From NCBI GenBank assembly GCA_007122505.1, contig SKTQ01000041.1, positions 1-33,873 on the forward strand: DNA of 33,873 nucleotides, written 5' to 3'. A model generated the notes under the pieces. The model was not told the DNA's origin. It did no database searches and saw nothing but the letters and a program-made list of their open reading frames with translations. The stretch's first letter is position 1. Each line of letters starts with the position of its first letter. This stretch comes from Bacteroidales bacterium (GTDB taxonomy: Bacteria > Bacteroidota > Bacteroidia > Bacteroidales > UBA7960). Below are positions 9,467-33,873 of the stretch, one piece after another. Made by a program: the position numbers and the translations under genes.

Positions 9467-9543
9467 AATTACCGGCGCGAATCCTCCTATCTCCCATCTC
9501 TCAGTTCTCAGATCCCAGCTCCCAGCTCCCATAATCATCTCTC

Positions 9544-9649
9544 CTTTGCGTTTTTTGCGTAATTTAACCTTTGCGGCCTTTGCGAGGAATAAAGAGCAAC
9601 AGCGGATTGCGGTTGATTTTTTCACCGCAAAGACGCAGAGCACGCAAAG
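9544..9649. repeat. CTTTGCG/CGCAAAG palindromic dispersed repeat, copy 1
   Basis: Iterated (C)TTTGCG on the left and CGCAAAG on the right. It has 7 mismatches in 106 bp against 24291-24396. Confidence 0.9.
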
Positions 9650-9651
9650 AA

Positions 9652-9691
9652 AATGTGCAAATTTATCAATGTATCAATGTGCAAATGTACA
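9652..9691. repeat. 8-bp tandem array (AATKTRYM)x5
   Basis: aatgtgca aatttatc aatgtatc aatgtgca aatgtaca. Confidence 0.85.
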
Positions 9692-9701
9692 AATGACGGT
9701 C

Positions 9702-9793
9702 CTTTGCGTTTTTTGCGTAATTTAACCTTTGCGGCCTTTGCGTGGAATAAAATGTTTCACGCAAAGCTCGCAATGAAAGAAAAGCCCGCAAAG
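9702..9793. repeat. CTTTGCG/CGCAAAG palindromic repeat, copy 2
   Basis: The first ~50 bp are nearly identical to 9543-9593 (one mismatch). It ends in CGCAAAG. Confidence 0.85.
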
Positions 9794-9808
9794 CTACTGC
9801 TTACTTAG

Positions 9809-10096
9809 CTACTTCTTACTTCTTACTCTTCTCTTAAGTCCCTTAAGTCCCTTAAGTCTCTTAAGTCTCTAAAGTCTCAGCTCCCAGCTCCCAGCTCCCA
9901 GCTCTCAGCTCCCAGCTCTACCTACTTCTTACTTCTTACTCTTCTCTTAAGTCCCTTAAGTCTCTTAAGTCTCTAAAGTCTCAGCTCCCAGCTCTCAGCT
10001 CTCAGCTCCCAGCTCCCAGCTCCCAGCTCCCAGCTCCCAGCTCCCAGCTTCCAGCTCCCAGCTCCCAGCTCCCAGCTCCCAGCTCCCAGCTCCCAT
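9809..10096. repeat. Duplicated compound microsatellite: (TACTTCT)n-(CTTAAGTCY)n-(CTCCCAG)n, twice
   Basis: Block 1 starts at 9809 and block 2 at 9922. The second block has 15 CTCCCAG-type units at 9985-10089. Confidence 0.95.
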
Positions 10097-10224: not shown

Positions 10225-10301
10225 TGGTAGCGGGGACGGGAGTTGAACCCGTGACCTTCGGGTTATGAATCCGACGCTCTAACCACCTGAGCTACCCCGC
10301 C
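10225..10301 (-). tRNA. tRNA-Met (CAT), elongator type
   Basis: Reverse complement GGCGGGGTAGCTCAGGTGGTTAGAGCGTCGGATTCATAACCCGAAGGTCACGGGTTCAACTCCCGTCCCCGCTACCA. It folds as a cloverleaf with encoded CCA and a paired (G-U) 1:72 position. A -7 box TAATTTTG lies at 10315-10322. Confidence 0.95.
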
Positions 10302-16175: not shown

Positions 16176-19100
16176 ATGAAAGCTATGGGATTGACTCGAT
16201 ATTTTAGGTTGTTGATATCATTTATGATAATCATTGTACTGGCACCCATTGAAAGTTCAGGTCAGTATTTTGGTCGTAACCGGCCAAGTTATCAGCGTTT
16301 TGATTTTCACATGCATCAAACGCCCCACTTTGATATCTACCACTATTTTGAAGATGACTCAGTGGTTACGGCTATTGCCAATACCTACGAGAAATGGTAC
16401 ATCAGGCTCCAGAAGGTTTTCAAAGATACCTTTGAAACGAGGAACCCCATTATTGTATATGCAAATCATCCCGATTTTCAGCAAACCACAGCCATAGGCG
16501 GCATGATTGGTATTGGCACATTGGGTGTTACGGAGGCACTCAGGAACAGGGTTGTTTCTCCAATCCTTGAAACAAATGCCGGTACTGACCACGTTATGGG
16601 TCACGAGCTTGTTCACGTCTTCCAGTTTCGGTCCATGTTTCTCAACGACTCACTCTCCCTGAACTCTTTGCGCAACTTGCCCTTGTGGCTTGTTGAAGGA
16701 ATGGCCGAATACTTTTCCATTGGCAGTGTCGATCCCCATACCGCCATGATCATGAGGGATGCCATCCATCAGGACAAGTTTCCGGATCTCCGTGACATGA
16801 CCCGCAGTTATGAGTATAATCCTTATCGCTTCGGGCATGCCTTTGTGGCGTTTTTTGGACGTACGTGGGGTGACTCCCTGATTGTTCCTTTGTTTTCGGA
16901 AACAGCCAAGTTTGGATATGAACGTGCAATGGAAAGGGTGGTTGGCTTGAGTGCCCGCACCGTGTCAACACTCTGGAAAACTGCCACAGAGAATCATTTT
17001 GCACCATTACTGGAAGATACCACTCGCCATGTGGCTGTTGGTCAGCGAATTCTTTCGAGAGACAATTCGGGAGCCATGAACCTGAGTCCTTCGGTAAGCC
17101 CCGACGGTACTATGGTAGCTTTCTTTTCAGAAAGAGACCTCATTTCCATAGACCTGTTCCTGGCCAATGCTCAAACCGGAGAAATCAAGCGCAAACTAGC
17201 CAGTGCAACCCGCTCCGGTGATATCGACGGCTACAACTTTTTTGAATCCATGGGAACCTGGTCGCCCGATGGCAGCAAGTTTATCCATGTTGCAGTTAAA
17301 CGGGGACGCAACTACCTAATAAAGGTAGATGTTAACAGGCCCCGGCGTACCAGGGAGATCCGCGTACCCGGAGTCCCTTCGCTCAATAATCCAAGCTGGT
17401 CTCCTGATGGAAGCTATTTGGTTTTCAACGGCCTGGTGGAAGGCCGTAACAATTTATTTAAGTTTAACCTGGAAACCAGGGAAGTTACCCAACTGACCAA
17501 CGACCGATATTCATATATCCACGCTTCTTTCTCACCGGATGGACGATGGTTGACCTTTGCCACCGACAGGCCCCAGTCAACACAAGCCGAAGATAAGCTA
17601 AACCTGAAGATGAACCTGGCCGTAATGGACCTCTCAGATCCCGACAGGCCCATTACAGTGCTGGATGTCTTCCCCGGAGCTGAAAACATTAACCCCGTCT
17701 TTACTCCCCAACAGGATGCCATTTATTTCTTGTCAAACAGTGACGGATTTCGTAATTTGTTTCTCTATGAAATGGAAACAGGGGATGTTTACCGGCTGAC
17801 TGATCTATATACTGGTATCAGCGGTATTACACATATGACCCCATCCATCAGTGTAGCAAGGGAAACCGGTGAAGTATTATACAGTCATTTTCAGAAAGGG
17901 GGATATTCCGTATACCGTGCACATCCCGATGAGTTTGACAGGGTACAGGTAGACCCTATGCAGCTGGATATGCATGCTGCAACCCTCCCACCCTATGAAC
18001 GCCTTGTGCCGGCCATCGTGGATGCCAGTCTTGCCATAGAGCCTATGGAACCCATCCTTCCCCCGGATGTTTTTGAGGAAAAACCATTTGACGGCCGCTT
18101 TGGACTGACATTTATCGGCAGTTCGGGTGTCGGTGTAGCGACCAACCGTTTTGGTACCGGTATGGCAGGAGGTGTAAGCATGATGTTCAGCGACATTATC
18201 GGAGACAACCAGTTGTTTACCACGCTGGCGGTGAACGGCGAGATATATGATTTTGGTGGAATGGTTGGCTATCTCAATCAGAAGAGCCGTATCAACTGGG
18301 GTGCTTCGGTTTCCCACATTCCCTACACATTTAATACATTGAGATTTATACGGGATACCCTTATGACAGAACAGGGGCCCGTGGGCGTGGATAACCTGCA
18401 GCTGCTGACGCAACGAACGTTTGAAGACCAGCTGGGATTATTTGCCTCTTTCCCCATCAGCACCACCCGCCGTATCGAAGCAGGCGCCAGCGTTGCCTGG
18501 TATTACTTCCGGATTGATGCCATCAACAATTATTATTTTCAGGGCTTCCGTGTTGGTGAAGAAAGGGAGCGCCTTGATGCCCCCGACGGGTTTAACCTTC
18601 AGCGTGTGAACCTTGCATACGTTGGCGATAACTCCTTTTTCGGGATGGCATCTCCCATGGCAGGCTTCCGCTATCGGCTCAGCGGTGAACGGATGTTTGG
18701 AGAAATAAACATGTACAACGTGGTGGCCGATTACCGGCATTATCTCCGCAGACATCCCTTTACTTTTGCCTTCAGGGGTATACACTATGGACGCTATGGC
18801 AAAAATGCCGACAACAGCCTTTTTTATCCGTTGTATCTGGGTTATCCGGGATTTGTCAGGGGGTATGATTATACCACACTCCGCCAGATCGAGAAAACCT
18901 TTGATGATGCATTTACATTTGAACAGCTTCTTGGCAGCAGGGTGATGCTTGGCGGGCTGGAAATTCGTGTGCCATTTACCGGCCCGGAACAACTTGCACT
19001 TATCTCCAGCGGATTCTTCTTTACGGAGCTTGCATGGTTCCTGGACGCGGGGGTAGCGTGGACAGGCGATACACGCATTACGCTTGACCCATCAAAAGGT

Positions 19101-19259
19101 ATGGACCCCGGCCGTCGTTTCCCTGTGTTCAGTACCGGTCCATCTCTTCGTATCAACCTCTTTGGAGCACTCATTCTTGAACCCTACCTGGCATTTCCGT
19201 TCCACACAAGAGGCATCAGAGAAGGCGTGTGGGGGCTGAACTTCTTGCCAGGTTGGTAA
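16176..19259 (+). CDS. Secreted/OM protein: zincin peptidase-like domain, TolB/PD40 propeller and Omp85(BamA)-like barrel
   Basis: Signal peptide; HELVH...WLVEGMAE; repeated SPDG motifs; C-terminal barrel with VRGY; terminal W. Confidence 0.75.
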   Translation: MKAMGLTRYFRLLISFMIIIVLAPIESSGQYFGRNRPSYQRFDFHMHQTPHFDIYHYFEDDSVVTAIANTYEKWYIRLQKVFKDTFETRNPIIVYANHPDFQQTTAIGGMIGIGTLGVTEALRNRVVSPILETNAGTDHVMGHELVHVFQFRSMFLNDSLSLNSLRNLPLWLVEGMAEYFSIGSVDPHTAMIMRDAIHQDKFPDLRDMTRSYEYNPYRFGHAFVAFFGRTWGDSLIVPLFSETAKFGYERAMERVVGLSARTVSTLWKTATENHFAPLLEDTTRHVAVGQRILSRDNSGAMNLSPSVSPDGTMVAFFSERDLISIDLFLANAQTGEIKRKLASATRSGDIDGYNFFESMGTWSPDGSKFIHVAVKRGRNYLIKVDVNRPRRTREIRVPGVPSLNNPSWSPDGSYLVFNGLVEGRNNLFKFNLETREVTQLTNDRYSYIHASFSPDGRWLTFATDRPQSTQAEDKLNLKMNLAVMDLSDPDRPITVLDVFPGAENINPVFTPQQDAIYFLSNSDGFRNLFLYEMETGDVYRLTDLYTGISGITHMTPSISVARETGEVLYSHFQKGGYSVYRAHPDEFDRVQVDPMQLDMHAATLPPYERLVPAIVDASLAIEPMEPILPPDVFEEKPFDGRFGLTFIGSSGVGVATNRFGTGMAGGVSMMFSDIIGDNQLFTTLAVNGEIYDFGGMVGYLNQKSRINWGASVSHIPYTFNTLRFIRDTLMTEQGPVGVDNLQLLTQRTFEDQLGLFASFPISTTRRIEAGASVAWYYFRIDAINNYYFQGFRVGEERERLDAPDGFNLQRVNLAYVGDNSFFGMASPMAGFRYRLSGERMFGEINMYNVVADYRHYLRRHPFTFAFRGIHYGRYGKNADNSLFYPLYLGYPGFVRGYDYTTLRQIEKTFDDAFTFEQLLGSRVMLGGLEIRVPFTGPEQLALISSGFFFTELAWFLDAGVAWTGDTRITLDPSKGMDPGRRFPVFSTGPSLRINLFGALILEPYLAFPFHTRGIREGVWGLNFLPGW

Positions 19260-19264
19260 AGGTA

Positions 19265-19344
19265 AATGTGTAAATTAGCTGATGTGCAAATGTGCAAATT
19301 AGCTGATGTGCAAATATGTAAATTAGCTGATGTGCAAATGTGCT
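19265..19344. repeat. 8-bp tandem array, left arm (10 units; AATGTGCA/AATTAGCT/GATGTGCA with a 24-bp super-period)
   Basis: Read directly; it starts 5 bp after the stop codon at 19259. Confidence 0.9.
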
Positions 19345-19360
19345 GATTTTATGGAGGGGT

Positions 19361-19714
19361 TTATTTGGGGATTCGTTTTTTTGTTGTGGAGATTATTTTT
19401 CCAAGAATCTTTTTAATACCAGCTATTTCACTAAGCAAGCCTCCGGGATTCGGATAGTTCTCAGATGATTCACATAATAACAACCAATATTCGGTTTCTT
19501 CGGCTTCTTTGCCCGCGATTTTTATTTTGTGACAAAAGTCAGCAACGCTCTCAGCGTTTTGTGCTTCACGGATTGATGCACCAACAGATGTTCCTGCTTT
19601 CATTAATTGATTTGCAATGACAAACTTCCTTTGCTGTTCAAGCAATTCACAGTATTTGATTATATTCAAAGCAAAAGAAAAACTTATTTCTAAAACCGCA
19701 TTCTTTTGAGCCAT
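19361..19714 (-). CDS. Four helix bundle protein (23S rRNA IVP / TIGR02436 / Avd-like fold)
   Basis: NQLMKAGTSVGASIREAQNAESVADFCHKIKIAGKEAEETEYWLLL. Likely start is ATG 19714. Confidence 0.92.
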   Translation of the reverse strand: MAQKNAVLEISFSFALNIIKYCELLEQQRKFVIANQLMKAGTSVGASIREAQNAESVADFCHKIKIAGKEAEETEYWLLLCESSENYPNPGGLLSEIAGIKKILGKIISTTKKRIPK

Positions 19715-19752
19715 TATTTGATGAATATGAGTGTTGTCATACAAATATTCAT

Positions 19753-19760
19753 CAAAGATA
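19753..19760 (-). promoter_or_regulatory. -7 promoter box (TATCTTTG) for the four helix bundle gene
   Basis: TAnnTTTG about 40 bp upstream of ATG 19714, in an AT-rich spacer. Confidence 0.5.
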
Positions 19761-19877
19761 ATTAAAAAATATTTGATATTAAAAAAACATATTTTTATTG
19801 CAAAAAACTGTTATATTTAAACCACTAACAAACCACCGACTAATTATCATACCCCCTCACTAAACCACCTCTCCATG

Positions 19878-20020
19878 CGTACATTTACACATTTGCACAT
19901 TGGTAGATTTGCTCATTGATACATTGGTACAATAGCTAATTGGTAAATTTACCCATTGATAGATTGGCACCTTGCACATTTGCAAATTGATACATTGGTA
20001 CGTTTACAAATTTGCACATT
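19878..20020. repeat. 8-bp tandem array, right arm (~18 units TGCACATT/GATACATT/AGCTAATT), inverted relative to the left arm
   Basis: Units are reverse complements of the 19265-19344 unit family. The array reaches the stop codon of the SSS gene. Confidence 0.88.
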
Positions 20021-21537
20021 TACTCATCGGTTTTCACTTCCTCCATCGCCTTGGCCAGCGACGTTTCTTTTGTGTAAAAGCGTCCCCATTTGGTCGACGG
20101 ATCGGGTTTCGTGGCCAGTGAAACGATGATCAGAGCGAGGATGGAAGCGCTGGCTGCGGGCAGGATGATGTATTGCTCGCTTAACAGTTGTGTGCCGTAC
20201 AAGTTTGACATGATGGAGTTGGTAATAGTGATGAAAAGGGTGACGCCCATACCGGTAGCGATTGAAGCCACGCCACCGGATACGGTCACCCGTTTCCACA
20301 GGAATGCCGCCAGAAGGGCAGGAGTAAGGCCTGCCCCAACCATGGTATAAGCGGTTAGTGCCATAGCCAGAATGGTTTCGAACTGCGTGAGGATCAAATA
20401 AGCCAGTAAGCCCAGCAAAACCACCATCACACGCTGAAACACCACGATCATTTTGGGATCTGCAGTTTTATTGATAAACCGTTGGTAAACATCCCTGGTG
20501 AGGTTGGTAGATGGTGTCAGCAGGAAACTGTTGCCTGTCGAGGTGATGATGGCTACAGATGCTGCCAGCAAAAGCAACCCTCCCCATACCGGCAACCCCA
20601 CTTCAGTGCTGTATCGCGCTGTATGCAGGATAATCCTCTCCGCATTTTCTGCAGCCAGGAAAAGTTCAGTTGAGCTTAATCGTTCCATCACATTAAAATG
20701 GCTGAAAGCGAATATTGCCAGTGAAGCCAGGGCTGTTTCCACCACAATGGTTCCTGAAACCCAAAAAACAACGGCTTTTTTTGCTGATTTTTCGTTTCGT
20801 GCAGAAAAGAACTTTTGGTACATATTGGACTCGCCGAGCAGGAGAAAGAAGGTAGGTAAAAATATCCCCATTGCCCAGAAAAAGTTTTTGTCGCCAAAAA
20901 TCTTGAAGTGCGACGGATCCAGTGTTGCTGTGAGGTGTTCGGCGCCACCGATATTGATGAACACGATGGGCGCTGCCACAAGCATTGCCACCGTAATCAC
21001 GGCTCCGTTGATGACGTCCACTGAGACAATTGATAACATCCCCGCAAAGGCGGTGAAGGTAATGATAAATGCCGCGGTTAGCAACACACCCTGCCACTCA
21101 GGAATGCCGGCAACCAGGTCCAGGACAAATCCGCCGGCACGGAACTGATATCCCACGATGGTTGTATAAGCGATCACGATCACGATGGTGCCGAGGATTC
21201 GTGCGTATTTGTTGTATCTCAGCTCCAGAATGTCCGGCACGGTGTATTCAGCGATACGGCGCACACGGGCAGCCAGGAAGAAAACAATGATGATGCCTAT
21301 CCATGCACCTGCTGCCATCCAAAGTTCGGAGAACCCCACTTTTACAGCCAGTCCGGCGCCGGCCAGCAAACTGCCTGACCCCATCCAGGTACAAAGCAGT
21401 GTGCCTACCAGACGGGCGGTTGACACCGAGCGCCCGGCAACCATAAAATCTTCCTGGTTTTTAACCCTGAAACTCTTGTAAATGGAAATGCTCATCAGCA
21501 AAACCAGGTATCCGATAACAACCCACAGGAATATCAT
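20020..21537 (-). CDS. Sodium:solute symporter (SSS) family protein
   Basis: Motifs DFMVAGR, TVPDILELRY, YQKFFSAR, ST.NS.L and AAFLWKR; about 13 TM helices. A -7 box TACCTTTG lies at 21578-21585. Confidence 0.92.
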   Translation of the reverse strand: MIFLWVVIGYLVLLMSISIYKSFRVKNQEDFMVAGRSVSTARLVGTLLCTWMGSGSLLAGAGLAVKVGFSELWMAAGAWIGIIIVFFLAARVRRIAEYTVPDILELRYNKYARILGTIVIVIAYTTIVGYQFRAGGFVLDLVAGIPEWQGVLLTAAFIITFTAFAGMLSIVSVDVINGAVITVAMLVAAPIVFINIGGAEHLTATLDPSHFKIFGDKNFFWAMGIFLPTFFLLLGESNMYQKFFSARNEKSAKKAVVFWVSGTIVVETALASLAIFAFSHFNVMERLSSTELFLAAENAERIILHTARYSTEVGLPVWGGLLLLAASVAIITSTGNSFLLTPSTNLTRDVYQRFINKTADPKMIVVFQRVMVVLLGLLAYLILTQFETILAMALTAYTMVGAGLTPALLAAFLWKRVTVSGGVASIATGMGVTLFITITNSIMSNLYGTQLLSEQYIILPAASASILALIIVSLATKPDPSTKWGRFYTKETSLAKAMEEVKTDE

Positions 21538-21715
21538 AATCAGTAGTTTTAGTTTGGTTCGTTTTTTACACTGCGGACAAAGGTAAAAATTTTTGTTTTT
21601 AAAATCCTGTTCTGCATTTTTTTCAAGCTCCCAGGTTACCTGTTTAATGCCTTAACAAATGGACTGCTTGCTTCTATTTACCTTTTGCTTGTCGGCCTTA
21701 AATCAAATTGATCCT

Positions 21716-21800
21716 CTTTGCGCTTTGCGTGAATTATTTTGCGGCCTTAGCGAGGAAGAAAAATTCCGCGCAAAGATCGCTGAGATAAAGACACGCAAAG
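21716..21800. repeat. CTTTGCG/CGCAAAG palindromic repeat, copy 3 (diverged)
   Basis: ctttgcgctttgcgtgaattattttgcggccttagcgagg...cgcaaag...cacgcaaag, followed by the 8-mer array. Confidence 0.8.
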
Positions 21801-21824
21801 AAAATGTACCAATTTATCAATGAT

Positions 21825-22040
21825 AAAATGTATCAATGATTCGATTATCAATGATCAATGAAAAATTTTTGTTATGATTGACTGATCAAGCCCGGCCTAT
21901 AGAGGTGGTGGCAAATCAGTTCCCGTTTTCCTGCCTGCTTCATACTTTTTATCCTGTGCCAACATTTTACTGCATACTGCCTACTGCTTACTAACTACTT
22001 TTTACTTTCACCCCCTCGCCCCTCTCTCTTTCGCCCCCTC
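21825..22040. repeat. ~216-bp direct repeat, copy A
   Basis: Matches 24461-24675 with 4 substitutions and a 1-bp indel by manual alignment. Confidence 0.95.
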
Positions 22041-22074
22041 CCTCATTCTCCACCTCACATCGACTTACCTTAAC

Positions 22075-24162: not shown

Positions 24163-24290
24163 TTGTTTTTCATTTTGCAACTAACTGTGTTGCGGTCTTT
24201 TATAGATTATTTTTAAGCTGCCCCTTCAGGGCGTTCCGTTTAACACCGCAAATCCTCTCACAGTTGCTGCGAATGCATAATACAGCCTTT

Positions 24291-24478
24291 CTTTGCGCGT
24301 TTTGCGTGATTTAACTTTTGCGGCCTTTGCGAGGAAAAAAGAGCAATAGCGGATTTCGGTTGATTTTTTCACCGCAAAGACGCAGAGCACGCAAAGAAAA
24401 TGTACCAATTTATTAATGTGAAAATGTACCAATTTATTAATGTGAAAATGTACCAATGTGAAAATGTATCAATGATTC
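24291..24478. repeat. CTTTGCG/CGCAAAG repeat copy 4 (24291-24396) plus 8-mer array (24399-24478)
   Basis: Nearly identical to 9544-9649, followed by aatgtacc/aatttatt/aatgtgaa units. Confidence 0.9.
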
Positions 24479-24675
24479 GATTATGAATGATCAATGAAAA
24501 ATTTTTGTTATGATTGACTGATCAAGCCCTGCCTATAGAGGTGGTGGCAAATCAGTTCCCGTTTTCCTGCCTGCTGCATACTTTTTATCCTGTGCCAACA
24601 TTTTACTGCATACTGCCTACTGCTTACTAACTACTTTTACTTTCACCCCCTCGCCCCTCTATCTTTCGCCCCCTC
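24461..24675. repeat. ~215-bp direct repeat, copy B
   Basis: See copy A. It is followed by CTCCCAG-type heptamers and the motif CATAATCA, also seen at about 9530 and 10094. Confidence 0.95.
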
Positions 24676-24818
24676 TCTCCCTCTCTCCTTCGTCCTCCCA
24701 GCTCCCAGTTCCCAGTTCCCAGCTCTCATAATCAATCTCCCTTGTGCGTAAAACTCAAATACCCGGCTAATTTCATGCATACACACATTTTGAAGTGTTA
24801 AAAATGCTGTTTCCACCA

Positions 24819-33722: not shown

Positions 33723-33759
33723 CAATTGAATTTTCAGCATTGTTTCACAACAGTGGTGT

Positions 33760-33873
33760 TGCCTGTTAGGTGAGGCTACTGGATGAACACAGGCTACTGC
33801 CCAAAAATGTCTACAGACGCCAATGGGTAGAACAGGCTTTGTCGGATTAAGGCACTGCTTAAGGTAGCTTCCC
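33760..33873 (+). ncRNA. M-box (ykoK) Mg2+-sensing riboswitch, 3'-truncated by the window edge
   Basis: Conserved blocks GTTAGGTGAGGCT, CTGCCCAAAAATGTC..AGACGCCAATGGGT.AACAG and TAAGG..TTAA..AGCT follow the order of the Bacillus subtilis mgtE leader. Confidence 0.9.

Follow-up and report, generated by a model that had tools for sequence, protein, structure and literature searches.

Architecture of the locus

The window analysed here is the whole 33,873-nucleotide (nt) stretch of contig SKTQ01000041.1 (assembly GCA_007122505.1), part of a metagenome-assembled Bacteroidales genome (G000; 2.6 Mb, 345 contigs). It contains a small gene of the TIGR02436/PF05635 four-helix-bundle family, bracketed by two mutually inverted arrays of short tandem repeats. 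A left octamer array, the gene itself on the minus strand and a right array occupy the 762-bp gap between two convergent genes, and this ensemble is referred to below as the cassette, with the arrays as its arms. The features of the locus are the following.

16176..19259, plus strand: left neighbour, 1027 aa, with PD40 repeats and a peptidase-MA-like region; converges on the cassette; stop codon at 19257-19259
19264..19344, plus strand: left arm, 10 octamers (AATGTGCA, AATTAGCT, GATGTGCA); G-type strand, reading inward
19361..19714, minus strand: four-helix-bundle gene, encoding 117 aa if started at the ATG at 19714; its open frame reaches back to a TTG at 19744
19715..19877, minus strand: AT-rich leader from the right arm to the start codon; contains the -7-box-like TATCTTTG at 19753-19760
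19878..20020, minus strand: right arm, about 18 degenerate octamers of the left-arm family in reverse-complement orientation
20020..21537, minus strand: right neighbour, a sodium:solute symporter of 505 aa (PF00474, 3e-35; TIGR00813); converges on the cassette

An earlier note, made from the letters alone, had described the four-helix gene as enclosed by inverted arrays, and this description is borne out by the ten octamers at 19264-19344 that face about 18 reverse-complement octamers at 19878-20020. Tandem Repeats Finder reports the left arm (19264-19343) as 10.0 copies of period 8, although it is better described as a 24-bp superunit composed of AAATGTGC, AAATTAGC and TGATGTGC and present in 3.3 copies (91% matches, score 139). 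The right arm is reported at 19881-20020 as degenerate period-8 arrays with 61% matches, and about 18 units of type AATGTGCA, AATTTGTA or AATGTATC can be counted in the sequence of its minus strand. A minority unit is indeed common to both arms, AATTAGCT occurring three times on the left and its complement AGCTAATT once on the right (19934-19941). The arms also adjoin the stop codons of the neighbours as had been claimed: the left array starts 5 nt past the stop at 19257-19259, and the symporter stop codon (complement of 20020-22) overlaps the last right-arm unit at 20013-20020. The label "Omp85" given earlier to the left neighbour finds no support in the Pfam and NCBIfam matches of this protein; those in Pfam are to PD40, peptidase-MA and DPPIV_N only.

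The inverted similarity was quantified with a flank test, in which 450 nt of left flank are locally aligned to the reverse complement of 450 nt of right flank, with shuffles and the direct orientation as controls and an inverted-similarity z of at least 5 as the threshold of significance. The window locus reaches a z of 11.8, against 1.5 in the direct orientation.

Proteins of the PF05635/TIGR02436 family are common in many bacterial genomes, and solved structures exist. The product of the cassette gene scores 79.7 bits against TIGR02436 (E 1.7e-22, cut-off 24) and 68.2 bits against PF05635 (E 8.5e-19, cut-off 33.8), and its translation likely starts at the ATG at 19714, giving 117 aa, rather than at the TTG at 19744. 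The "-7 box" that had been credited to the gene does exist as a TAnnTTTG match, TATCTTTG at 19753-19760 on the minus strand, 46 nt upstream of the ATG. As evidence of a promoter belonging to the gene it is weak, since the motif is frequent in the window (0.6 per kb per strand) and a single match lies within chance expectation.

The closest solved relative of the protein is Protein Data Bank entry 2RLD, which has five chains (E 8e-21). An AlphaFold model built from 21 relatives predicts four helices with a mean predicted local distance difference test score (pLDDT) of 96.7, and a Foldseek search with this model gives template-modelling (TM) scores of 0.88 to 2RLD and 0.85-0.87 to 2GSC. The suggested sharing of a fold with Avd, the accessory protein of diversity-generating retroelements (DGRs), is upheld by a TM score of 0.69 to 4DWL at a sequence identity of about 15%, and the DGR ribonucleoprotein entries 8UB7 and 8UB8 match as well. 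Comparison with the 77% identical orthologue in a same-genus genome (G011) gives a dN/dS of 0.09 at a dS of 1.24, and the protein is therefore under strong purifying selection; the arms of both cassettes are still of the NRATGTGC type.

Recurrence of the inverted arms

Four TIGR02436 genes were found in the genome that contains the window, and all of them are bracketed by mutually inverted short tandem arrays, with four different units.

Window locus: AATGTGCA
Second cassette: GAGTTTA x 15.6 against ACTCTTA x 4.7
Third cassette: TGAGAGC x 14 against TCCCAGA x 5.7
Fourth cassette: AGTAAGC x 4.3 against CTTACTA x 3.9

Neighbour orientations differ among the four cassettes. One of them lies between cysD and cysN, which are on the same strand, and the arms are therefore not simply the 3' tails of converging genes. 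When the genome is surveyed from the side of the arrays, 54 array pairs are found 150-1500 bp apart, of which five are mutually inverted (6-mer similarity of at least 0.25), and four of these five enclose the four TIGR02436 genes.

The flank test was extended to three samples of the gene family, with the following results.

Order sample (64 instances, 21 genomes): 59 testable, 38 significant, 30 inverted-dominant, 10 direct-dominant
Closest relatives across Bacteroidota (55-67% identity): 79 of 80 testable, 48 significant, 45 inverted-dominant, 9 direct-dominant
Relatives of the paralogue on contig C83, metagenome contigs: 71 of 80 testable, 61 significant, 58 inverted-dominant, 9 direct-dominant

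Single proteins served as queries for the two wider samples, which accordingly hold only relatives at 55-71% identity. The Bacteroidota sample includes Flavobacterium, Lutibacter, Sphingobacterium, Saprospiraceae, Chitinophagales, Cyclobacteriaceae and Bacteroidales. As had been anticipated, inverted arms are commoner around four-helix genes (38/59, 48/79 and 61/71) than at random positions, where only one of 300 "pseudo-genes" of 320 bp placed in the window's genome was significant; a raw flank score of at least 18 was reached by none of these 300 controls and by 41 of the 59 order loci. These counts support the gene with inverted arms as a general layout for this gene family, recurring across a bacterial phylum. 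The extent to which an arm may expand is illustrated by one related cassette (L024; genome G018, contig C101:791-1208), where the right arm comprises 52 octamers over 418 bp and the left arm is a 40-bp compound repeat running into the contig end.

The arms also have a fixed polarity. On the plus strand the left arm contains more G than C and the right arm more C than G, irrespective of gene direction, so that both ends, read 5' to 3' from outside, begin with a G-containing, C-poor strand. In the left arm of the window locus, G exceeds C by 15, and G-rich left arms are found at 28 of 30, 45 of 45 and 56 of 58 inverted-dominant loci of the three samples (129/133 in total). Where the arms are complementary, they extend over a median of 5.0 units (interquartile range 4.5-6.75, n = 86), and compact arms measure about 35-36 nt in both protein subfamilies described below. 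At compact Flavobacterium loci the cassette fits its surroundings tightly, with the upstream stop codon in the first unit, the cassette ATG in the last unit and the ATG of the downstream gene 3 nt past the right arm.

Two possible sources of the polarity were considered and set aside. Stop codons, considered as a barrier to incoming ribosomes, close all three frames in 29 of 60 "entering" and 22 of 60 "leaving" arms, a weak trend that was rejected as the main cause. C-rich outgoing arms could in principle act as Rho loading sites, but the C-type strand of the octamer family (TGCACATT, AGCTAATT), inspected by eye, has no YC dinucleotides.

Filled and empty junctions

The symporter orthologue was located in 17 same-genus genomes, 12 of which keep both neighbours on one contig. 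Nine of these 12 junctions are octamer-free and 23-272 bp long, several with a plain terminator-like hairpin. A full cassette is present at the G011 junction, with the gene direction reversed relative to the neighbours; the G006 junction holds inverted arms around a gene-less spacer of 170 bp, and at that of G018 there is only one array, of about 24 units that all point the same way. At the cysD-cysN site, where the cassette of the window's genome has perfectly complementary 34-nt arms (34/34), the junction is 15-90 bp long and array-free in all five readable relatives. The empty site that the earlier note had proposed to look for in close relatives is found at the window junction and also at cysD-cysN, and these junctions support the conclusion that the arms belong to the cassette rather than to the site.

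A stretch of 66 nt in the gene-less G006 element is 92% identical to part of a complete cassette that is flanked by a tRNA gene and a transporter gene in the same genome. About 36 nt of this match are non-repeat inner border, and the element therefore points to derivation from cassettes. Together with the general layout and the array-free empty sites, this derivative substantiates the idea of a self-contained unit of gene plus arms. In a symporter tree of 18 rows, array-bearing junctions are scattered among empty ones; the tree is poorly resolved (7 of 15 inner forks unresolved), so repeated gain and repeated clean loss are not told apart.

Repeat unit and protein subfamily

The main new point to emerge from the comparison is that the period and motif of the repeats appear to follow the protein subfamily. 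Where the protein shares 50% identity or more with that of the window, which is the case at 51 loci, the period is 8 in 99 of 102 arms. The consensus of 503 units, with the phase set by positions 2-3, reads A/G (0.74/0.20), A, T, T/G (0.67/0.25), T/A (0.69/0.22), G (0.80), N, A/T, or RATKWGNW in shorthand; AATGTGCA, AATTAGCT and GATGTGCA match it exactly. In a second subfamily, represented by the relatives of the contig C83 paralogue, the period is 7 at all 58 inverted-dominant loci, and the units include AGTGAAA, AATGAAG and GAGTTAA. Across 86 loci, protein identity and the 5-mer similarity of the arms are correlated (Spearman 0.65), a value reached in none of 999 Mantel permutations. The mean arm cosine rises from 0.05 below 25% protein identity to 0.37 at 50-70% and 0.82 above 70%, and it is 0.06 among 40 pairs of same-genome paralogues. 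The unit sequence is read as constrained because the octamer motif is kept across orders and because it persists between the window's genome and G011 at a dS of 1.24.

These features suggest that the cassette is self-contained and that its protein, as an oligomer, recognises the repeats of its own arms, a reading to which we give roughly an even chance. A tandem-repeat arm, a PF05635/TIGR02436 gene and a reverse-complement arm would form a compact unit that is gained or lost whole and exactly fills the space from the coding end of one neighbour to that of the other, with some route to new sites presumably implied. Each protein subfamily would have its own repeat, RATKWGNW octamers here and heptamers in another, and the arms would be putative arrays of recognition sites for the small basic protein that the cassette itself encodes, the two arrays serving as inverted ends with fixed strand polarity. 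The suggestion of the earlier note that the protein binds the repeats thereby receives indirect support from sequence comparison. A pentamer, the state of its structural relatives, is probable for the protein: the median of 5.0 complementary units would be compatible with the five chains of 2RLD and with Avd, in the available part of one report a pentameric barrel of high positive charge (PMC6182149).

Several observations weigh against this reading. The correlation between unit and protein is also expected from co-inherited neighbouring DNA, whose shared descent does contribute to it, and the relatives compared are non-independent; moreover, at about 50% protein identity the nearest sampled relatives of two of the four paralogues already have unrelated units. 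Among the 59 testable order instances, 19 have no significant arms, with neither inverted nor direct similarity, and 10 are dominated by direct repeats. In the two wider samples, many of the 79 and 71 loci occupy orthologous sites of Flavobacterium or gut Bacteroidales, so that the counts overstate how many events were independent. The pentameric state is argued from homologues, and the protein is only mildly basic (isoelectric point 8.8, net charge +3). A mobility enzyme was not identified, nor was a target-site duplication, for which filled and empty sites are too diverged for border alignment. Finally, arrays of period 6-10 far outnumber TIGR02436 genes in the window's genome (240 against 4), and arrays are also present in same-genus genomes in which no TIGR02436 gene was found, such as G009 (92% completeness) and G007.

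Putative recognition sites or possible RNA stem

Because the arrays are inverted, the arms could also pair as a long imperfect stem in read-through RNA, a property that is ranked second to recognition here. The most serious competing explanation, which we nevertheless consider unlikely, makes this pairing the function of the arms: as in the intervening sequences (IVSs) of ribosomal RNA (rRNA), they would pair in the transcript and be cut by RNase III, the four-helix messenger RNA would be freed and the messages of the neighbours would remain intact, with the sequence of the repeats being irrelevant. The predicted fold of 19260-20022 (minus strand) agrees with it as far as the 5' arm pairs with the 3' arm at a minimum free energy of -189.8 kcal/mol, compared with -161.7 +/- 7.7 for 20 shuffled sequences (z = -3.67). 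The perfect arms of the cysD-cysN cassette point in the same direction, as do the many pairing registers that tandem units permit and the location of cassettes inside operons, where polarity would need avoiding. The precedent of the gene family itself, which sits in RNase III-cut, stem-bounded rRNA IVSs in the available part of one report (PMC4990558), with a 28-bp stem and heptamers, keeps the stem plausible.

Other properties of the arms fit this explanation poorly. At the window locus they are complementary in 66 of 87 aligned columns (about 76%), and one arm is often much longer than the other, with 10 and about 18 units here and 15.6 and 4.7 or 14 and 5.7 units at paralogues. A strand test for G·U-compatible differences gave no signal at the RNA level, as no sense-strand excess was seen in 42 protein clusters (sense 19, antisense 17, equal 6; sums 70 against 78), where transversions (351) exceed transitions (294). 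In the heptamer subfamily, 10 of 16 loci examined have G in the upstream arm where the reverse complement of the downstream arm has T, for example upstream AGTGAAA and AATGAAG against downstream AGTTAAA and AATTAAG (L181, L189, L194, L202, L208 and others). This difference at a fixed unit position would therefore give the stem a recurring mismatch, and the two heptamer arms thus tend to be distinct arrays, not exact complements.

The pairing explanation also leaves two regularities without a cause. A constrained unit sequence is not required by pairing alone, which does not account for a motif kept in 6 of 8 positions across orders at a dS above 1, nor does it account for the fixed order of G-type and C-type arms. 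Of what the earlier note had proposed on this subject, the long stem holds as a fold prediction, its extent being reduced by the imperfect and unequal arms and by the missing G·U signal. The mRNA-level intervening sequence retains weak support from that predicted stem; as a mechanism it is possible and not favoured by the strand test or by the recurrent heptamer mismatch. The imperfect match, the absence of a G·U bias, the heptamer mismatch and the unequal arms together are the reason why arrays of recognition sites are ranked above an RNase III stem.

Arrays outside cassettes

A further explanation, less probable than the RNA stem, regards the arrays as an independent, genome-wide class of intergenic repeats comparable to those described as STRR or TAACTGA-type, between which the gene lands or is kept. 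The 240 arrays of the window's genome are what it would predict, and so are the gene-free mosaics of shared unit families within the window (9491-10095, 21803-22056 and 24396-24725) and the single one-orientation array at the G018 symporter junction. Heptamer arrays adjoining start codons are also in print without this gene family, as far as the available text of that report goes (PMC4679880). Among same-genus genomes, arrays occur in 8 of 10 with the gene and octamer or CTCCCAG-type arrays in 7 of 15 with no detected gene, a tally to be read with the caveats that many of these genomes are 64-87% complete, that repeats break assemblies and that relatives are non-independent. G009 in particular counts against a strict link between array and gene.

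Against an independent repeat class stand the empty orthologous junctions, which are array-free in 9 of 12 cases here and in 5 of 5 at cysD-cysN, and the fact that four of the five inverted pairs in the genome enclose the gene. The unit period and motif track the subfamily across orders and habitats, which insertion of the gene into arrays of the host would not produce. The gene-less copy in G006, with its inner border shared with a full cassette, favours solo arrays as derivatives of cassettes.

That the locus is a chance product or an assembly artefact, a mis-join of repeat-rich contigs in a fragmented genome of 345 contigs with many arrays at contig ends, is very improbable, since the stretch is found in contigs of four public runs and differs there by only 2-3 bases, one record spans all of 18600-20700 and the layout recurs at hundreds of independent loci. 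The runs date from 2012 and 2019 and derive from at least two sources, one of them being an RNA library; further contigs extend from the left neighbour to 20214 or 20313. One contig of the RNA library spans both arms and the gene, where DNA carry-over is possible. The sole rearrangement seen concerns the right arm, where contigs of three runs carry a length variant of 47 nt (joint 19928 to 19976); no joint that removes or flips the cassette occurs in the contigs of the four runs, a kind of record from which rare variants are dropped.

Several other repeats of the window and its genome deserve description in their own right. The mosaic at 9491-10095, about 600 bp long, consists of CTCCCAG x 6, AAATGTAC x 5.6, TACTTCT, TCTCTTAAG x 5 and CAGCTCC x 16, interleaved with copies of a GCAAAG/CTTTGCG-rich module, and adjoins a tRNA gene (10228-10301, minus strand). 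Its units belong to the families that form the arms of the other four-helix-bundle cassettes of the genome. The copies at 21803-22056 and 24396-24725 are a composite element made of an octamer array, a 107-bp core, TACTGCN heptamers and a CCCTC-rich tract. The core is 98% identical between the two copies and has seven blastn matches in the genome, three of them near full length (the query's own place included). These composite elements have the cassette-like succession of G-type and C-type arrays, are gene-less and have non-complementary arms.

A dispersed repeat of about 125 bp with inverted GCAAAG and CTTTGCG motifs lies at 24270-24398 and also at 9530-9651 and 21715-21761; it often directly flanks octamer arrays and has about 90 blastn hits across the 2.6-Mb genome. 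Among the inverted octamer pairs of the genome, a single one lacks a four-helix-bundle gene; it lies on contig C104 (2405-3272), and its 793-bp interior contains further dispersed repeats as well as a 67-aa open reading frame (ORF) without a Pfam match. Decay of a cassette could explain this pair, as could a cassette carrying other cargo. At its far end the window also contains an M-box (magnesium) riboswitch aptamer (33755-33873, 100 bits), which is cut by the window end.

Related elements

ORF-bearing IVSs of 23S rRNA are located in helix 9, 25 or 45. To our knowledge, the rRNA intervening sequences that carry PF05635/TIGR02436 genes have been without an explanation since the 1990s, and the same applies to the function of the protein. 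Like the cassette, the IVSs of Coxiella and Leptospira have a PF05635-family ORF looped out by complementary termini and are of similar size, whereas the cassette lies between converging protein genes and not in an rRNA gene; Rfam detects no rRNA in the window. In the sections available of the report on Coxiella burnetii, the S23p IVS measures 428 nt and is bounded by an RNase III-cut stem of 28 bp, with 3-4 tandem heptamers, varying in number among strains, ahead of the ORF (PMC4990558). That stem is near-perfect, whereas the arrays of the cassette are 80 and 143 nt long and about 76% complementary.

The resemblance to Avd concerns the four-helix-bundle fold. Avd acts on nucleic acid together with a reverse transcriptase, as stated in the available part of its description (PMC6182149), and no reverse transcriptase domain was found by Pfam among the 19 ORFs of the window that were scanned, smaller ORFs not being included. 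A DGR survey, in its accessible portion, mentions for PF05635 only the resemblance to Avd (PMC10053308).

Cyanobacterial STRR are intergenic short tandem repeats comparable to heptamer arrays. TAACTGA heptamer arrays are intergenic and occur in Beggiatoaceae, Cyanobacteria and Bacteroidetes; like the arms of the cassette, they have 7-8-nt tandem units, are strictly intergenic, often end a few bases away from a start or stop codon and are patchily distributed, according to the available text of the report (PMC4679880). In that same text they are linked neither to four-helix-bundle genes nor to inverted pairs, the terms "four helix" and "intervening" having no occurrences (PMC4679880). Cassette arrays differ from them in forming inverted pairs around a gene and in having a unit that depends on the protein subfamily.

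Transposons with terminal inverted repeats (TIRs) and miniature inverted-repeat transposable elements (MITEs) share with the cassette inverted ends, fixed polarity and presence or absence at orthologous sites. Further shared traits are the copy that lacks the gene but keeps the ends and the inner border, and the occurrence of the internal segment in both orientations. Unlike a TIR transposon, the cassette has no transposase or other catalytic gene, the 117-aa helical protein being its only ORF, and its ends are tandem arrays of variable length. The copies within one genome, moreover, are old and of different families (28-45% protein identity). No papers on tandem-repeat-armed four-helix-bundle cassettes outside rRNA were found by full-text searches.

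Implications

New here are the dependence of period and motif on the protein subfamily, the rule of polarity, the orthologue with its gene flipped and the derivative that lacks the gene. The locus and its relatives connect PF05635/TIGR02436 proteins with unexplained intergenic arrays of heptamers and octamers, and they turn an annotation of "function unknown" into a directly testable idea, namely binding of a cognate as opposed to a non-cognate repeat, with five units expected per pentamer. Annotation should allow for such cassettes, in gene calling as in operon prediction, since they occupy exact positions between genes and also occur within operons.

It is tempting to go further and to suppose that four-helix-bundle proteins are sequence-specific binders of tandem repeats, a ring reading about five units of 7-8 nt, that the cassettes are autonomous and that solo arrays, by extension including STRR and the heptamers of sulfur bacteria, are their gene-less derivatives or footprints; in this full form the proposal is doubtful. 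If true, it would represent a new partnership of protein and repeat with a readable recognition code, the octamer RATKWGNW for one subfamily and heptamers for others, and would link an uncharacterised protein family, which includes the rRNA IVS proteins and the Avd fold, to long-unexplained bacterial repeats.

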